Origin: Escherichia coli
GTDB taxonomy: Bacteria > Pseudomonadota > Gammaproteobacteria > Enterobacterales > Enterobacteriaceae
NCBI RefSeq assembly: GCF_011045215.1
Contig: NZ_CP049201.1
Strand: one strand, 5' to 3'
DNA length: 64,000 bases
The notes under the pieces were generated by a model that did not search any database, was not told the origin of the DNA, and saw nothing but the letters and a program-made list of their open reading frames with translations. A program made the position numbers and the translations under genes. Of the stretch, positions 2,933-9,661 are shown piece after piece; the stretch's first letter is position 1, and each line of letters starts with the position of its first letter.

Positions 2933-3050
2933 CGTTTACGGGATTCTGAAATCCCGTTTTTGCCTGTTTTGTGTGCGCTTCATATATCGCGGCGCGTTTT
3001 TTGCTCATTTACGGGATTTGTGAATCCCGTTTCTGTCTGTTTTTTGTTTC
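2933..3050. repeat. Two copies (2933-2975, 3006-3050) of a ~45-bp repeat, each with palindrome ACGGGATT-N4-AATCCCGT; candidate parC-like centromere/operator
   Basis: Direct repeat with internal inverted repeat, immediately upstream of the parM start. Confidence 0.6.
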
Positions 3051-4533
3051 CACTGGTCAGGCCACCCCGCAGCAGGTCTGCTTTGCGGCGGGCACGTTCA
3101 GTGGTTTCACTGATTCTCTGTGCGTGCTCTGCGTCGCGGATGGCGCGCAGCATGTCAGAAAGCACGGTAACGGGGGTTTTCATGGTGTTCTGGTCCTGCT
3201 GAAGTGTGGATGCCAGACGTGCGGCGGCTTCGAGGTCTGATGCCCCCAGCTGTTCCAGATAGCTGGCGACCGGGTTATGGCGGATCTCCGTGCTGCTTAC
3301 GCCGTGATTACGGCTCAGGCGCTGCCAGAGCTGCGTGATTCGGCTGTCCGGGCGGGTATCCGGTTTGCGTACAATTTCAAATCCCTGCGGTGCAATGATG
3401 CTGCCGTCAACGTACAGGCTGCCGCCCCGTAACAGGTGCTGCATCTGCTGTTCACCGATATGCATGCCGAGAGATTCGGCAGATTCCCGCCATTCTTTAG
3501 CGAGTAATTCGTGGTTATCAGGCAAAGGCCGCTGCTGTTTGCGGCTCTGTGTCCAGCTCTGCATTTCATCACTGCTGTTTTTTGCCTGTTTGTCACGCAG
3601 CGAACGCATCAGCGCCCGGCGTTCGTGCCGTTTCAGTGAGCGCACCCATTCATCCACATCAACGCCGTCAGGAAGCTGCGGCCACGGTGCTGGCCGTTCT
3701 TCCGGCTGTTCTGTCCCGTTGTTGTCCGTTTCCTGTACACGGGGACAGTTATTGCCACGAGTCCAAGGGGCGGCAGGGCCGCTCTGAAGGTCAAAACCAT
3801 TTTCGCGGGAGCTGTCTTCCGCTTCCGGTTTGCGTCTTACCAGCTTCCAGTTATCCGGATGCGTGCATACGCGGGAAGACTCCCCGATGAGCGGCGACCA
3901 GATCCCGTAAATCTGTACACTCTGCTCACCGTAATCGTTCAGTTCATCTGCGAGGTCGTAGGCGGTGCGAATCAGGTAGTCTTTGCGTGGAACAAGCACG
4001 CCACCCTGTTTTTCAATGTAGGTGGCAAAACACCCGGCATCAGCGGCAGCGAGTACCGCATCCATTGCGTCATCCTTCAGCCGTTGCGGGCCTTCCGGGT
4101 TGCGTGCCATCTGGCTGGCAAGGCGGCGCAGTTCACGCCACACCTGACGGGAGGGGATACCAAAGAACTGGAACTGGCGGACCCGGTGAAGGCGCGCCCA
4201 GCCGATGGCGCGTTCCACGCTCTCGGCCATTGATTTTCCGGTTTCGTGGTCAACGCGTGGCTTGCCCGTTTTCGGGTCGATGCCATCCACGGCGCGGCTG
4301 TCCAGGTTCTTTCCGATGTAGGTGGCGATGTAGCTGGTTGGCGTGCCTTTTGAGCCGTCGACGTACTCCGCCTTAAAACGCGGAGTTATGTCATCGCCCA
4401 GCTCGTGGCGGTCTTCCTGAATGGCAATATCGCAGACGTGGGACACGATGGTTTCAATCTCGTCCGGATGTGCAAAGACCATCATATGCCAGTGCACAGT
4501 GCCGTCATGGTGAGGCTCCAGCGGTGTATTCAC
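2980..4533 (-). pseudogene. HUH-motif rolling-circle replication initiator, P2 gpA-like; apparently 5'-truncated
   Basis: 517-aa ORF begins at GTG right at the motif HHDGTVHWHMMVFAHPDE, preceded by in-frame TGA; upstream 300 bp is coding-like in two other frames. Confidence 0.5.
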
Positions 4534-4686
4534 TCAGCGAGGCACACCCGCCAGCAGTGTGATGCGCCAGCATTGCCGCAAATACGGAGGCCGGGGAGTC
4601 GTAATACGCCAGCAGTGATTCGCCATGCGGTGTCAGGCAGCGCAACGCCAGCCCGTGTGGTGTTAAGTCCACGCGGTAGCAGTCGT

Positions 4687-4836
4687 CTACTGTGAAATAA
4701 AGGGTGAGCGTTGTTCTTTAGCTGCCATTTCATCAATGACGGCTCGCTCTTCGAGGGACAGCCGAAGTGCCAGTCTTGGACCTGTGGCGGTGTTACGCGG
4801 AATGCGTGATCTGGTATCGTGAAGAACTTGTTTCAT
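4687..4836 (-). CDS. Small 49-aa ORF divergent from the XRE gene (possible Cox/excisionase-like or RHH regulator)
   Basis: ATG at 4836 to TAG at 4687; below the 60-aa ORF-track cutoff; position equivalent to cox in a P2-type early region. Confidence 0.3.
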   Translation of the reverse strand: MKQVLHDTRSRIPRNTATGPRLALRLSLEERAVIDEMAAKEQRSPFISQ

Positions 4837-4878
4837 AGTGGTATATTGTGATCATCTAATAGCTCATGAAATCATTTT

Positions 4879-4896
4879 GGTATCAAAAAAGATACC
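4879..4896. promoter_or_regulatory. Palindrome GGTATC-N6-GATACC in the divergent promoter region; candidate operator
   Basis: 6-bp perfect inverted arms with A6 spacer between divergent starts at 4836 and 4912. Confidence 0.35.
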
Positions 4897-4911
4897 TGTC
4901 AAGGTTTTTGT

Positions 4912-5316
4912 ATGAAAAATGATATTGGTCAGCGGTTGCGTGAGGAAAGGGAAAGATTGGGGCTTAGTCAAGTTGCTATGAGCGACATTGGTGGAGTCAA
5001 AAAGCTAACTCAGCTTAGATATGAGAAAGGAGATAGCTTTCCTGATGCTGCGTATTTGGCAGCGCTGTCTCGTTTTGGCCTTGATGTTCAGTATGTTGTG
5101 TTGGGAATTCACTCACCTGAAACTTATAACGATGATGAGCAGGAGTTGATTACTCGCTTTCGAGCAGCTTCGTTAGATGTAAAAAACGCGGTGATCGGGG
5201 CTTTAAAAGGTGCGGGCAGTGAAAAGGAAACTCAGCCATCAGGGCGTGAGTTAAATATTTCTGGTGGTAATAACCGTATCGCTGGTCGTGACTATAACGA
5301 AACTAAGGGTAGGTGA
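4912..5316 (+). CDS. XRE-family helix-turn-helix protein (repressor-like) with C-terminal tail carrying an NNRIAGRDYNE motif
   Basis: N-terminal HTH signature (IGQRLREERERLGLSQVAMSDIGGVKKLTQLRYEKG); low GC. Confidence 0.7.
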   Translation: MKNDIGQRLREERERLGLSQVAMSDIGGVKKLTQLRYEKGDSFPDAAYLAALSRFGLDVQYVVLGIHSPETYNDDEQELITRFRAASLDVKNAVIGALKGAGSEKETQPSGRELNISGGNNRIAGRDYNETKGR

Positions 5317-5331
5317 TAGTAGGGAGGTGAC

Positions 5332-5982
5332 ATGGCCGTCAACTCAAACGGTTCAAACAATCGCGTTGCTGGGCGTGATTTTCACGAAAAGAATATTCAG
5401 ATAGAGCGATATGATGGTTCTCATACCGTCAATATCGCAATCCCTTCGAATAATGATGATGACGCTCGCCCTTTGCTTAAGGCACAGCGTAAGGAGCTAA
5501 ATAGCTTGGTTGCTGCTATTGCAGAAGCTAGCAATACTGAAGCGTTTATTATTTGGCAAAAAGTACATGCGGAGATTGGTGTAGCTGGTATTGATGATAT
5601 GACAATAAATCAATATAAAACAGCGGAGAGTTTTCTGCATGCAATGCTTGAGCGATGTAAAGATCATGATGCCTGTAAGACTCTTGTAAGTTTATTACTA
5701 CGTAACAGTGAAGACTGTGGACTTCGACAAAAACTTCTGCGGTATTGCCATATCAATTTCGGTACAGGACGTTTAAACGATCTTACTCGTTCTCAGTTAC
5801 AGTCTGCATTGTCGTGGTTAGAGCAACAATCGGTATCAAGCCACTCAGAGAATTCGACCTTACCAGAAGTTCGCCTTCGTGCTTCAGAATTAATCCGATT
5901 TTATCCAAAAGAAATAATATTCTTTATCTGCGTAGGGGTTTTGGTAGGCGGAGCCATTTCTAGGATGTTTTTTAATTTGTAA
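5332..5982 (+). CDS. Hypothetical protein, cytoplasmic domain plus single C-terminal transmembrane anchor; N-terminus repeats the NNRVAGRDFHE motif
   Basis: 216 aa; strong RBS AGGGAGGTGA 5 nt upstream; C-terminal hydrophobic segment IIFFICVGVLVGGAI; low GC. Confidence 0.6.
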   Translation: MAVNSNGSNNRVAGRDFHEKNIQIERYDGSHTVNIAIPSNNDDDARPLLKAQRKELNSLVAAIAEASNTEAFIIWQKVHAEIGVAGIDDMTINQYKTAESFLHAMLERCKDHDACKTLVSLLLRNSEDCGLRQKLLRYCHINFGTGRLNDLTRSQLQSALSWLEQQSVSSHSENSTLPEVRLRASELIRFYPKEIIFFICVGVLVGGAISRMFFNL

Positions 5983-6011
5983 TCTTACTTGAGCTAAATT
6001 GAGGCAATGAC

Positions 6012-6359
6012 ATGAAAGTAAAAAAGGTTCAACTATTAGTTGCTTTTTTATCTATGTTTTCTTTTTCCGCCGTCGCAATGCCTTTTAAAACTATTGAACG
6101 TGAGAGTTTCAATGGAGTATGGCCATTTAATACAGATGAGGTTCAATTGCAGTGTCTTGATGGTAATCCTTATGTGATGAATTTTGACGATAATAAGTTA
6201 TATGCGCTTACAGGTTTGGCTCGAATAAAAGGTAAAACATTTGGTGCGTTACCGTTAGATAACAATAATCCATTTTGGCTAGATAATGATGCCGCCCCAG
6301 GGTTAAAAAAGAATCTGGGGGACGTCACTAAGGCTGCATTTGATTTATGTGATAAGTAA
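6012..6359 (+). CDS. Small secreted/periplasmic protein with signal peptide (tentatively DUF2511/YebY-like)
   Basis: 115 aa; N-terminal signal peptide MKVKKVQLLVAFLSMFSFSAVA; family assignment from memory only. Confidence 0.55.
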   Translation: MKVKKVQLLVAFLSMFSFSAVAMPFKTIERESFNGVWPFNTDEVQLQCLDGNPYVMNFDDNKLYALTGLARIKGKTFGALPLDNNNPFWLDNDAAPGLKKNLGDVTKAAFDLCDK

Positions 6360-6364
6360 CAAAA

Positions 6365-7366
6365 ATGTCGGTTCGTAAAACTCCATCAGGTAAATGGCTT
6401 TGCGAATGTTATCCCTACGGAGCATCGGGAAAACGCATTCGTAAACAGTTTGCGACAAAAAGTGAGGCGCTCTCTTATGAGCGCCGTTTAATGAATAGTA
6501 GAGTTGGAGACGAGTTTCAAGATGGTTCTGGTCCTCGTCTTTCTGAGTTGATTGCTCGTTGGTTTGAGATGTACGGAAAAACCTTGTCCTCTGGTGCAGA
6601 GCGCAAAGTCAAACTTGAGGCGATTTGTTCTAGGCTGGGAGATCCATTTGCTTCTCAGTTTGACAAAAATATGTTTGCTACTTATCGGGAAAGAAGGCTA
6701 TCAGGAGAATGGAATCCCAAGGGGAAGAAAAAACTTAGTGAAGCAACCGTTAATCGCGAGCAGTCATATCTACATGCTGTTTTTGCCGAACTGAAGCGCC
6801 TTGGGGAGTGGTCTGGTGAAAACCCCCTGACTGGAATTCGCAAGTTTCGTGAGGAAGAAAAGGAGCTGGCGTTTCTGTATGTAGATGAGATTGAACGCCT
6901 TTTGATTGCGTGTGATGATTCACGGAATAAAGATTTGGGGGTTGTTGTCCGTATTGGGCTTGCGACTGGTGCTCGGTGGAGTGAAGCAGAAGGATTAAAG
7001 CAATCTCAAGTACTGCCCGGTCGAATCACATTTGTTAAAACTAAAGGAAAGAAGAACCGCACTGTACCGATTTCACCTCAATTGCAGGCTATGCTTCCTA
7101 AAAAACGAGGAGCGCTATTTTCACCATGTTATGAGGCTTTTGACGCTGCAATTAAGAGAGCGAAGATAGAGCTCCCTGATGGGCAATTAACTCATGTGCT
7201 ACGTCACACGTTTGCTAGTCATTTTATGATGCGGGGCGGAAATATTCTTGTGTTGCAAAAAATACTGGGGCATAGCGATATAAAAATGACTATGCGTTAT
7301 GCGCATTTTGCTCCGGGTCATTTAGAGGCTGCTGTTGAATTAAACCCTTTTGACAATAGAGGGTAA
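6365..7366 (+). CDS. int: Tyrosine recombinase, P2-type phage integrase
   Basis: 333 aa; motifs LATGARWSEA, ITFVKTKGKKNRTVPIS, HVLRHTFASHFMMRGGNILVLQKILGH, MRYAHF closely match P2 Int (from memory). Confidence 0.9.
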   Translation: MSVRKTPSGKWLCECYPYGASGKRIRKQFATKSEALSYERRLMNSRVGDEFQDGSGPRLSELIARWFEMYGKTLSSGAERKVKLEAICSRLGDPFASQFDKNMFATYRERRLSGEWNPKGKKKLSEATVNREQSYLHAVFAELKRLGEWSGENPLTGIRKFREEEKELAFLYVDEIERLLIACDDSRNKDLGVVVRIGLATGARWSEAEGLKQSQVLPGRITFVKTKGKKNRTVPISPQLQAMLPKKRGALFSPCYEAFDAAIKRAKIELPDGQLTHVLRHTFASHFMMRGGNILVLQKILGHSDIKMTMRYAHFAPGHLEAAVELNPFDNRG

Positions 7367-7472
7367 AAAGTGGCGATAAAAAGTGACAATAGATTCAAAT
7401 GGCGTCGTATAGAGCTATTTGCAAAGTTAATAAAATCATAAGGTTATGATTTATAAATGGTGGTTGATAGTT

Positions 7473-7527
7473 TTTAAAATCCCTCGGCGTTCGCGCTGTG
7501 CGGGTTCAAGTCCCGCTCCGGGTACCA
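7473..7527 (+). other. leuZ: 3' ~55 nt of tRNA-Leu (leuZ) ending in CCA: attachment-site core; not an intact tRNA
   Basis: TTTAAAATCCCTCGGCGTTCGCGCTGTGCGGGTTCAAGTCCCGCTCCGGGTACCA matches the leuZ 3' part; upstream sequence only partly tRNA-like, no acceptor-stem 5' strand. Confidence 0.8.
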
Positions 7528-7570
7528 TGGGAAAGATAAGAATAAAATCAAAGCAATAAGCAGTGTCGTG

Positions 7571-7596
7571 AAACCACCTTCGGGTGGTTTTTTTGT
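7571..7596 (+). terminator. Intrinsic terminator of the leuZ tRNA operon
   Basis: AAACCACC-TTCG-GGTGGTTT stem followed by T-run. Confidence 0.8.
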
Positions 7597-7722
7597 GCCT
7601 GCAACTTGTCGTTACACCCTCCTTAATTTTTAATCACCGGCAAAGCCACTCAAAAAGTATCTCTGATACGGACCGGCATGTAAGATAGGTGCTGGCGAGT
7701 TGAGATCCACAAGGAAAAGCGT

Positions 7723-8388
7723 ATGAAAACGGGACCGTTAAACGAAAGTGAGTTGGAATGGCTGGACGATATTCTGACCAAATACAACACTGACCACGCC
7801 ATCCTTGATGTGGCGGAGCTGGACGGTTTATTGACGGCAGTGTTGAGTTCTCCGCAAGAGATTGAACCGGCACAGTGGCTGGTTGCCGTGTGGGGTGGGG
7901 CTGACTATGTGCCGCGCTGGGCGTCAGAGAAAGAGATGACGCGCTTTATGAACCTGGCTTTTCAACATATGGCCGATACCGCAGAGCGTCTGAACGAATT
8001 CCCGGAGCAGTTTGAGCCGTTATTCGGCTTGCGAGAAGTTGATGGCAGCGAGCTGACGATTGTTGAGGAGTGGTGCTTTGGCTATATGCGGGGCGTGGCA
8101 CTTTCTGACTGGTCAACATTGCCCGATTCGTTAAAACCAGCGCTGGAGGCGATAGCGCTGCACGGTACTGAGGAAAACTTCGAGCGGGTAGAGAAGATGT
8201 CGCCAGAAGCGTTTGAAGAGAGCGTAGATGCCATTCGACTGGCGGCGCTTGATTTACATGCATACTGGATGGCGCATCCGCAGGAAAAAGCTGTTCAGCA
8301 ACCGATCAAAGCAGAAGAGAAACCGGGGCGTAACGATCCTTGTCCGTGCGGCAGTGGTAAGAAATTTAAGCAGTGCTGCCTGCATTAA
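7723..8388 (+). CDS. yecA: UPF0149 protein YecA with C-terminal SEC-C zinc motif
   Basis: 221 aa; C-terminal [13 protein letters not shown]; K-12 synteny. Confidence 0.9.
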
Positions 8389-8449
8389 GAAGTCAAATTG
8401 GGTGTCAGCGTTAATTCTGGCACCCAATAAGGAATTTGAGGCTATCTAA

Positions 8450-9661
8450 TCACCCCACTTCTGGTAACAACCCTGCCGCAATCAAAAATTGCACGCCAAT
8501 CACAGCAATACCACAGAGAAACACCACCACCAGCGCCGGACGACCACCTTTGACCCGGTAACCCGCTTGAGGATTGTGCCTTCTGCTTTGCCAGGTCAAC
8601 AGCGAAGGGATAATCAATGCCAGTACCGCCAGCGCCACACCGGCGTAACCCAGCGCCATCACAAATCCTCGTGGATAAAACAGTGCAAACGCCAACGGCG
8701 GCAGAAAGGTAATTGCTCCAGTTTGCAATCGTCCACCAACGGTATTTGAACGCTGAAACAAATCAGCCAGATAATCAAATAAGCCTAACGCAACGCCGAG
8801 AAATGACGTGGCGAGGGCTAAATCAGCAAATAAATGCACTGCCAGCTCAACATGCGGAGAGGCCACCATTTCGCGTAACGCCTGTAACAGCCCGTTTAAT
8901 CCGGCATGATTAGCCAGCAATCCCATAAAGGTTGTTGAATCAATGCTGCCAAGCGTCGCCACCTGCCAGAAAATATATGCCACCAGGGGGATCGCACTAC
9001 CGATTATAAACACCCAGCGTAGCTTACGAATGTTGCCATCCATATAGCTGACAATACTCGGCACGCTACCGTGAAAACCAAACGACGTAAAAATCACCGG
9101 GATTGCAGACAGTGCCAGCCCCTGTTGCAACGGCAGGGTTAAAAGATTCACTTTGTGAATATGCGGTAGCAGCAATACCAACATCACCACCAAAAAAATA
9201 ATTTTGGCGCTGAACAGAAAACGGTTAAATAAATCGACCAGCGATGTTCCAACACAAACCACGCCACCGGCAACAAAAGTGAACAACAGCACGCCAGCGG
9301 TTGCCGACATTGAAATACCTGTCCAGTCGCTGATGCTGGAGGCCAACAATTCACCGGCACCGCTGATGTATGCCGCAGTCAGAGCATACATTAAGAACAT
9401 CATACTGAAGCCCGTCAGCCATTGACCGTAGCGTCCCAGATAGCGTTTTGCCAGCGTGCCCAGACCGGTATCTGCCGGAACATGCTGGTACACCTCCAGC
9501 AGTAATAGCGCCGTGTAGCACATCAACGCCCAAAGCCCAATCAACAAGATTAACGTAACGCTAAAACCAACACCGGCCGCAGCCAGCGGCATTGCCAGCA
9601 TGCCTGCGCCAATTGTGGTTCCCGCCACGATAAAAACACTTCCCAGGGTTCTGTTTTTCAC
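8450..9661 (-). CDS. tyrP: Tyrosine-specific transport protein
   Basis: 403 aa polytopic permease; synteny. Confidence 0.95.

Follow-up and report, generated by a model that had tools for sequence, protein, structure and literature searches.

Two types of lysis/lysogeny switches have been described in P2-like phages (PMC1904263, PMC3448106). In the P2 type, the repressor C is a small protein of ~100 amino acids (aa), its operators are direct repeats, and there is a single repressor promoter. In the 186 type, the 196-aa CI protein is used together with three dyads, distal sites, and CII. In some P2-like phages, phiCTX and phiRSA1 among them, no repressor could be identified (PMC1904263, PMC3448106). 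Binding of direct repeats by C has been described for phage P2 (PMC1904263, PMC2995052), and the operators of WPhi are likewise direct repeats (PMC1904263). The CI repressor of 186 contains an oligomerization domain that forms a 14-mer; its three operators are of two types, and CII is needed for establishment (PMC1904263). The present analysis deals with the switch region of a P2-like prophage in Escherichia coli, located in a 64,000-nucleotide (nt) stretch of contig NZ_CP049201.1 (assembly GCF_011045215.1), hereafter the window. The prophage sits beside yecA, and its right flank consists of yecA, tyrP, yecH, and ftnA. It is defective, and an 18-bp palindrome found in its early lytic promoter is very probably the operator of its immunity repressor, a 134-aa protein of the XRE type.

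The open reading frames (ORFs) that start at position 4836 on the minus strand and at position 4912 on the plus strand are separated by 75 bp (4837 to 4911). This gap contains the sequence GGTATCAAAAAAGATACC at positions 4879 to 4896, with perfect 6-bp arms on both sides of a 6-bp A-tract (GGTATC-AAAAAA-GATACC). Both the 75-bp gap between the divergent starts and the inverted repeat had been listed in an earlier note on this DNA, and both agree with the ORF coordinates and the sequence. A promoter scan of positions 4600 to 5100 revealed a sole sigma-70-like site, the near-consensus TTGACA-17-CAAAAT on the minus strand. Its 17-bp spacer (4880 to 4896) lies wholly inside the palindrome, and the end base of the palindrome, 4879, belongs to the -10 hexamer as well. 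Leftward transcription would be expected to start near position 4867. The locus thus combines an inverted repeat of ~14 to 18 bp with a promoter that it overlaps, and its relatives are alike in this respect. Given this location between the -35 and -10 elements of the leftward promoter, the primary job of the palindrome should be to repress the lytic promoter, not to control the rightward cargo genes. Control of the cargo cassette, suggested in the earlier note, is accordingly not supported as the main role of this site.

Scanning viral contigs with the XRE protein yielded 78 loci (numbered below with the prefix L), ~20 of which were distinct and diverged, with 32 to 63% identity. Inverted repeats were looked for in 12 lineages with repressors that are 31 to 64% identical, ranging from E. 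coli-type viral contigs to Pseudomonas, Burkholderia, and Mu-like phages. In 10 of these 12, the best inverted repeat had its center 22 to 26 bp ahead of the repressor start codon and abutted a GTCAA box, which reads TTGAC on the opposite strand. In the lineages that were read, the opposite strand carries TTGACx, 17 to 18 bp of spacer, and a -10-like hexamer, with the repeat located in the spacer. The GTCAA(G/C) box is present in nearly all relatives read by eye, the variants being ATCAA (L054), GCCAA (L068), and TGCAAG (L077), and the hexamers at the matching offset include CACAAT, CATAAT, CATACT, AATAAT, and TATATT. In many relatives, such as L067, L074, L078, Ps59, and B3, a GTCAAGG box is followed by ~7 to 10 nt and then by the start codon. 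In Ps59 and B3, which are Mu-like Pseudomonas phages, the layout is the same: GGTGCCAAATATTGCACC, tGTCAAGG, ~10 nt, and GTG. Only an imperfect repeat was found in L075. Comparison with shuffled sequences gave P values of 0.002 to 0.26 for the individual repeats and a Fisher combination of ~1e-8, which overstates their independence, as the five GGTAT-type lineages are related.

The comparison also indicates whose site this is. When the dyad of each lineage was read beside the alignment of the repressor proteins, the dyad was seen to follow the recognition helix. The helix VKKLTQL goes with GGTAT...ATACC in the window and in L047, L049, L055, L053, L054, and L065. Other helices go with other dyads: GVSRKTLFGYE with ATGGGTA-N6-TACCCAT (L067), GVSFRAYCDYE with ATTTGC-N8-GCAAAT (L068), GVSRESWGKYE with GAGATC-N4-GATCTC (L074), and GLSHEGLRRYE with TACCACCA-N2-TGGTGGTA (L079). 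Two further types of the helix-turn-helix (HTH) domain, in L077 and L078, are paired with ATGACTACA... and AGTCAAGAT..., respectively, and GGTGC is also among the dyads that are paired with differing helices. Within the VKKLTQL group, the core is GGTAT-N8-ATACC: the outer bases are kept and the inner ones vary symmetrically (C/G to A/T), while the remaining intergenic DNA cannot be aligned.

In the intact relatives, the first leftward gene encodes an Arc-like protein, followed by a Cox-like one, and ribbon-helix-helix proteins such as Arc do bind dyad operators; moreover, P2-type switches include a second repressor with an operator of its own (PMC1904263). It could be argued, then, that the palindrome serves one of these two products or a host factor. 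The case of L074 speaks directly to this suggestion, as 64 of 68 positions of its Arc-like protein agree with the E. coli type, against only 42% identity for the repressor and a dyad wholly different from that in the window. Together with the co-variation of the dyad and the recognition helix, this contrast assigns the dyad to the XRE protein rather than to the Arc-like one. The dyad is also retained in L053, L054, and the Pseudomonas loci, where the first leftward gene is not Arc-like, and the invariant block at 4829 to 4860 (see below) makes a better candidate for a site of the Arc-like or Cox-like protein. Binding of another protein to the palindrome is consequently very unlikely.

Conservation of the position of a repeat despite changes in its sequence would also be seen in a structural RNA element, and with a repressor promoter at 4839 to 4847, the palindrome would be transcribed as part of the 5' leader of this mRNA. 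As an RNA hairpin, it could affect mRNA stability, translation, or attenuation, and the minimum-free-energy fold of positions 4854 to 4930 does include the 6-bp stem. That fold, however, is no better than those of shuffled sequences (z = -1.07, with 27 of 200 shuffles folding as well), the stem is short and A/U-rich, and no relevant Rfam family was matched. Among repressors with the same helix, at 51 to 64% protein identity, it is the sequence itself and not mere pairing that is kept, and the repeat always fits the 17- to 18-bp spacer of the opposing promoter. Palindromes with no spacer at all, such as GGTATAAATATTTATACC, are typical of dimer operators. These features render an RNA hairpin highly improbable.

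The repressor itself is predicted to have the five-helix fold of the lambda repressor-like HTH domains. The AlphaFold2 model, built from a 47-sequence alignment, has helices at residues 5 to 15, 20 to 27, 31 to 39, 46 to 53, and 59 to 64; the mean predicted local distance difference test (pLDDT) score is 77.5, and ten-residue blocks across residues 11 to 60 score 93 to 96. Its top match in Foldseek is the N-terminal domain of the P22 c2 repressor on its operator (Protein Data Bank entry 3JXB), with a target template modeling (TM) score of 0.80 and a root mean square deviation of 1.6 A over 63 residues; the P22 c2 entries 3JXB and 2R1J were matched with a probability of 1.00 and target TM scores of 0.80 to 0.82. 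In a sequence search of solved structures, P22 c2 was again the best relative (E = 0.011), and the P2 C chain (2XCJ) was not detected at E values of up to 1. In Foldseek, 2XCJ ranked 21st, with a target TM score of 0.65 and 21% identity, a general likeness of the fold only. No match to the S24 (Peptidase_S24) self-cleavage domain was found in Pfam, PHROGs, or NCBIfam. Lacking this C-terminal peptidase domain, the protein is not expected to undergo RecA-mediated self-cleavage. The fold, the position of the dyad, and its co-variation with the helix support the suggestions of the earlier note that this is a lysis/lysogeny-type switch or an operator for the XRE protein. The literature search returned no paper on this repressor type, on the switch of the related Escherichia phage 520873, or on the tail motif described below. 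LfsT of Pseudomonas aeruginosa (PMC9769523), with its 97 aa, is not the same protein. The weak Rfam match to Hrs1 within the XRE coding region (5223 to 5260; 23.8 bits versus a gathering score of 56.4, E = 0.04) most likely arose by chance.

Several observations weigh against the assignment of the palindrome as the operator. Taken alone, the palindrome is within chance expectation. Perfect 6-bp-arm inverted repeats with spacers of 0 to 10 were counted in the window and in shuffles of the 75-bp region; there are 268 of them in the entire window, or 0.31 expected per 75 bp, and 23% of the shuffles of this A/T-rich region hold an equal repeat. It becomes significant because of its position in the promoter spacer and its conservation among the relatives; with the same position in 10 of 12 lineages, the fit to the spacer, and the co-variation with the repressor, a chance palindrome devoid of function is exceedingly unlikely. 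The -10 hexamer of the promoter, CAAAAT, is a weak one, and the Pfam domains HTH_31, HTH_19, and HTH_3 match the protein only below their curated cut-offs. The operon to be regulated has been destroyed in the window, which would limit any present-day function to immunity and autoregulation. Finally, no further copy of the operator was found in the E. coli type, which has a single site only. Unlike in the multi-operator switches of lambda, P22, and 186, cooperativity cannot be assumed here.

The search for additional copies covered the window and the entire phage 520873, allowing one mismatch to GGTAT-N8-ATACC or two to GGTATC-N6-GATACC, and returned slightly more matches than predicted from shuffles. 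The four extra matches in the window sit deep within long host ORFs and were treated as chance ones. In phage 520873 (L081), the sites at 3789 to 3806 and 3855 to 3872 match GGTAT-N8-ATACC with one mismatch; both fall within the Cox-like gene, at distances of ~290 and ~355 bp from the operator, in a region missing from the window. Imperfect and without equivalents in the other lineages, they are probably fortuitous as well. Only weak sites with 1 or 2 mismatches were seen besides the operator in the whole of phage 520873, none of them a convincing distal site. Most of the other lineages are likewise single-site, but in L067, L069, and L068 the lineage's own operator recurs 31 to 34 bp downstream (at 2483 to 2502 in each). 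In the viral contig L044, the 3' end of a further repressor-type gene (...GKGHRIAGRDYNETKG*) stands at ~2440 to 2500 in place of the palindrome's left half. This junction inside the operator, which leaves two repressor genes in tandem, looks like a product of recombination.

In the P22 c2 and 434 repressors, dyads of 14 to 18 bp are bound through their outer bases, the A/T-rich center is left uncontacted, and the P22 c2 operators are 18 bp long. By analogy, the XRE protein would bind the 18-bp dyad as a dimer, with the recognition helix VKKLTQL reading the outer GGTAT/ATACC and making no contacts with the A/T-rich center. The bound dimer would cover the core of the promoter and exclude RNA polymerase, so that the early lytic operon would stay silent; in the intact relatives, this operon comprises the Arc-like gene, the Cox-like gene, more small genes, and then the replication gene A. 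Occupancy of the dyad should also modulate the operon of the repressor, orf216, DUF2511, and int genes, with an effect of either sign. Binding, the dimeric state of the protein, promoter activity, the start sites, and autoregulation are all parts of the mechanism that we infer from these comparisons.

Where the repressor's own promoter lies is less certain. With only 10 nt between the leftward -35 element and the start codon of the XRE gene, the promoter of this gene must be located upstream of that element, and two rightward candidates can be recognized there. The first one, an extended -10 element TGgTATATT, would face the lytic promoter, an arrangement known from P2 and 186, and the starts would be near 4854 (rightward) and 4867 (leftward). 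The second one, TGaAATCAT with a -35 element TTGTGA, has its -10 at 4870 to 4875, overlapping the leftward -10, and its start would fall inside the dyad. With either of them, the dyad is at or downstream of the start of repressor transcription, which makes some autoregulation likely. If the second candidate is the actual promoter, the two promoters would be back-to-back, in an overlapping divergent arrangement, and the site would be mainly a negative autoregulatory operator for the XRE-orf216-DUF2511-int genes that also blocks the leftward promoter. We regard this arrangement as possible, though less likely than not. Its extended -10 is accompanied by four of the six consensus bases of a -35, and similar TGn-(-10) elements end 3 to 7 bp before the dyad in L047, L053, L054, and L065; -10-like matches, however, are cheap in a stretch that is A/T-rich anyway because it holds the leftward -10 on the opposite strand. 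The TGgTATATT element 32 bp upstream is stronger and far better conserved, and P2-like switches have been described with converging promoters (PMC1904263). The second operator copy of L067, L069, and L068 lies over the start codon of the repressor gene or over its ribosome-binding site, so that negative autoregulation is implied for those loci. This alternative disputes only the location of the repressor promoter and not the role of the palindrome as the XRE operator. Of the divergent promoters proposed in the earlier note, the leftward one is matched by a clear promoter-like site, and the divergent layout would hold for one of the two rightward candidates, the overlapping one, the other being face-to-face.

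The first candidate is contained in a conserved block at 4829 to 4860 that spans the start codon of the Arc-like gene. This block is nearly invariant in all relatives that carry the Arc-like gene, even where the Arc-like proteins are identical in only ~30 of 68 positions, and the gene has no obvious Shine-Dalgarno sequence. The block could serve as the repressor promoter, as an operator bound by the Arc-like or Cox-like product, or as the region where translation of the Arc-like gene begins. The coordinates of all these elements, as well as of the neighboring genes, are listed in Table 1.

Table 1. Elements of the switch region and adjacent prophage genes, with positions given in the window
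Feature	Position	Strand	Basis or remark
Remnant of replication endonuclease (P2 gene A type), 517-aa ORF	2980-4533	-	Matching genes annotated as replication endonuclease
Second deletion junction, ~1.36 kb lost, including 5' part of replication gene A	4519-4520		blastn against L001
Truncated Arc-like (ribbon-helix-helix) gene, 49 aa: 45 authentic codons and 4 derived from the junction	4687-4836	-	
Deletion junction, 9 bp common to both flanks, ~2.06 kb lost	4698-4706		blastn against L001
Conserved block CTTGTTTCATAGTGGTATATTGTGATCATCTA across the Arc-like start codon	4829-4860		Alignment of relatives
Candidate repressor promoter 1, extended -10 TGgTATATT, facing the lytic promoter	4839-4847	+	Predicted
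Candidate repressor promoter 2, TGaAATCAT, with -35 TTGTGA at 4847-4852 and 18-bp spacer	4867-4875	+	Predicted
-10 hexamer CAAAAT of leftward promoter, 17-bp spacer	4874-4879	-	Promoter scan
Putative operator, 18-bp dyad GGTATC-AAAAAA-GATACC	4879-4896		Sequence; same-position repeats in relatives; tracks recognition helix
-35 hexamer TTGACA of leftward early promoter	4897-4902	-	Promoter scan
Shine-Dalgarno AAGG of XRE gene	4901-4904	+	2-nt overlap with -35 of opposing promoter
XRE-type immunity repressor, 134 aa: HTH domain 1-64, helical hairpin 74-102, disordered tail 105-134	4912-5316	+	ORF, AlphaFold2, Foldseek
Codons of predicted recognition helix VKKLTQLRYE (residues 29-38)	4996-5025	+	HMMER alignment to P22 c2; model helix 31-39; relatives
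Codons of repressor tail motif LNISGGNNRIAGRDYNE	5251-5301	+	pLDDT below 50 in model
orf216: N-terminal motif VNSNGSNNRVAGRDFHE (nt 5338-5388), helical Flk-like domain, C-terminal transmembrane helix	5332-5982	+	
DUF2511 gene (cargo)	6012-6359	+	Same orientation as repressor
Tyrosine integrase, end gene of rightward block, adjoins yecA	6365-7366	+	

Comparison with the described systems places this locus among ordinary genetic switches with a repressor type that is new to experimental study. As in P2, the integrase and repressor genes share one orientation and are opposed, in the intact relatives, by an early operon with a Cox-like gene and gene A; the repressor would act at the early promoter and, like P2 C, is small and has no S24 self-cleavage domain. 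The differences from P2 include an inverted repeat in place of direct-repeat operators, a repressor that does not belong to the P2 C family (no match at E values of up to 1), an Arc-like gene that precedes the Cox-like one, and two extra genes between the repressor and int. Phage 186 offers the precedent of a P2-like phage whose repressor recognizes inverted repeats at the early promoter (PMC1904263); the protein described here is from another family and only 134 aa long, and there is a single site in the E. coli type. The module shares the P2 gene order and departs from both the P2 and the 186 families in their defining features. The best match in both sequence and structure is P22 c2, whose domain has been crystallized on synthetic operators, according to the titles of the structure entries. 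The GGTAT-N8-ATACC core with its A6 center fits the operator pattern of P22 c2 and 434, so that the module can be likened to a P22 c2/434-type operator set in a promoter spacer. The resemblance does not extend to the C-terminal S24 domain of P22 c2 and lambda cI, which is replaced here, in comparison with P22 c2, by a helical hairpin and a disordered tail with a conserved peptide motif, nor to the tandem operators OR1 to OR3 of P22 and lambda, as the single operator of this locus provides no cooperative multi-operator array.

The prophage type represented in the window recurs in other E. coli genomes. The sequence from position 4698 rightward (the query being 4698 to 5400) is 95 to 99% identical to sequences in 752 of the 5426 complete E. 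coli genomes (~14%) and also matches Escherichia phage 520873 (family Peduoviridae, genus Xuanwuvirus). The gene order, int, DUF2511, orf216, and XRE on one side and Arc-like, Cox-like, and further genes up to A on the other, is the same as in that phage and in the intact prophage of E. coli 14EC001 (L001), and the XRE gene is 99% identical to its counterpart in the intact prophages. In 14EC001, the leftward operon encodes the 68-aa ORF, a Cox-like excisionase/repressor, DUF4761, small ORFs, and a 927-aa replication endonuclease. The 68-aa ORF (5933 to 6139 of L001, minus strand) was matched along its entire length by phrog_3431, "Arc-like repressor" (E = 1e-28), and the neighboring gene matches phrog_575, "Cox-like excisionase and repressor." The RefSeq annotation of 14EC001 misses the Arc-like gene and has instead a 45-aa hypothetical ORF on the opposite strand (5988 to 6125 of L001, plus strand); the feature lists of other top matches show the same "hypothetical protein" entries.

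In the window, much of this operon has been lost. Alignment with L001 by blastn paired positions 4519 to 4706 with 3749 to 3936 and positions 4698 to 8000 with 6001 to 9303, so that L001 position 3936 is joined to 6001; the missing 2.06 kb comprised the Cox-like and DUF4761 genes, among others, along with the 3' third of the Arc-like gene. The small leftward ORF of the earlier note is actually an incomplete gene, with the first 45 codons of the 68-aa Arc-like gene joined through this deletion to remnants of the replication region. A second junction connects L001 positions 2387 and 3749 (3080 to 4520 of the window align with 947 to 2387). The deletion junction of the window was absent from all 5426 complete E. 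coli genomes that were searched. With its early operon destroyed, the prophage retains the switch as a relic whose repressor side is intact. On that side, the XRE, orf216, DUF2511, and int genes are co-oriented, with gaps of only 5 to 29 bp, and are therefore probably co-transcribed. The remaining repressor, operator, and rightward genes could still provide immunity against phages of the same immunity type.

The tail of the repressor and the start of the adjacent downstream protein share a motif of 15 to 19 aa, which reads NNR[IV]AGRD[YF].E in the E. coli and Pseudomonas types. This pairing was seen in nearly every related locus, the Pseudomonas ones among them, and specifically in L047, L054, L067, L069, L074, L075, L077, L078, L082 (Ps59), L083 (KS10), L084 (B3), L085 (BcepMu), L086, and L087 to L089. 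The bodies of the downstream proteins differ, and all those examined, except for KS10 gp12, end in transmembrane helices. In the Burkholderia and Ralstonia phages, the motif differs between systems and yet is shared within each pair, such as SGSGITQVGS and SGFGIIQVAG in KS10, QNFEGASIGQQVTGDV and NQKFDGEIGQVAGGDV in KS5, and QVFHGSVGQAV and QEFNKPVGQAI in BcepMu. When the cognate tails and heads were compared with shuffled sequences, P was at most 0.0085 in seven of the eight systems, which represent four motif classes (AGRDY, BcepMu, KS5, and KS10), and 0.027 in the Ralstonia phage. With the exception of the Ralstonia pair, cognate pairs outscored the non-cognate ones across classes.

The helical domain of orf216 is similar to that of the host flagellar regulator Flk (NCBIfam E value of 6e-15, far below the family cut-off), homologues of orf216 carry the Pfam domain PF27202, and no match in the PADLOC defense-system library was found for orf216, DUF2511, or the Arc-like protein. 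Given the shared, co-varying motif, orf216 seems to be a conserved repressor partner rather than cargo. One 264-aa protein of L079 (2489 to 3289), as read by eye, seems to fuse the HTH domain to an orf216-like region, a hint at joint action of the repressor and orf216. In the window, the XRE gene ends with TGA TAG TAG (5314 to 5331), and orf216 follows in the same reading frame; read-through or fusion of the two was rejected because the spacing of the motifs is not a multiple of three in L054, L066, L067, L077, and L078. In an AlphaFold2 model of a repressor-linker-orf216 chimera, obtained with a paired alignment, both motifs had pLDDT scores of ~30 and were disordered, with no contact between them, an outcome that is neutral as to an interaction.

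The same motif at the C terminus of one protein and at the N terminus of the adjacent co-oriented gene product is the genomic signature that defines bacterial amyloid signaling motifs (BASS; 10.1101/2020.01.06.895854), and the same signature is found in the prophage-borne E. coli defense pair Bab/Agp (10.1101/2024.11.07.622273). The pairs described here are similar to these in having a shared, co-varying motif of at least 15 aa in products of adjacent co-oriented genes. The carriers are different: here, a repressor of the HTH type is paired with a Flk-like or zinc-ribbon membrane protein that is tail-anchored, instead of an NLR/STAND/Agp sensor with a Bell/HeLo/Bab effector. By this analogy, the P2-like and Mu-like phages of Enterobacterales, Pseudomonas, Burkholderia, and Ralstonia might share an undescribed, widespread class of immunity modules, in which the repressor is coupled through the motif to a membrane-anchored partner; we consider this rather unlikely. 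If the motif does mediate homotypic beta-zipper or amyloid-like templating, the partner could sequester or inactivate the repressor upon a membrane-level signal, which would allow prophage induction or superinfection sensing with neither RecA cleavage nor a classical antirepressor. The co-varying terminal motif common to the repressor and its membrane-anchored neighbor may thus point to a further way of controlling a prophage switch. The conclusion on the operator does not depend on this pairing.

The assignments made here can be used to annotate a prophage type that is found in ~14% of the complete E. coli genomes, namely its immunity repressor with the operator and the early promoter; RefSeq annotation seems often to miss the Arc-like gene there and to call an ORF on the opposite strand in its place. 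The copy in the window, though a relic and defective, may nevertheless still give immunity. More generally, a single dyad in the promoter spacer, recognized by a P22 c2-like domain, would constitute a third switch layout for P2-like phages, beside those of P2 C and 186 CI. The same layout recurs in Mu-like phages, and the pairs of operators and recognition helices could serve as a natural specificity table.

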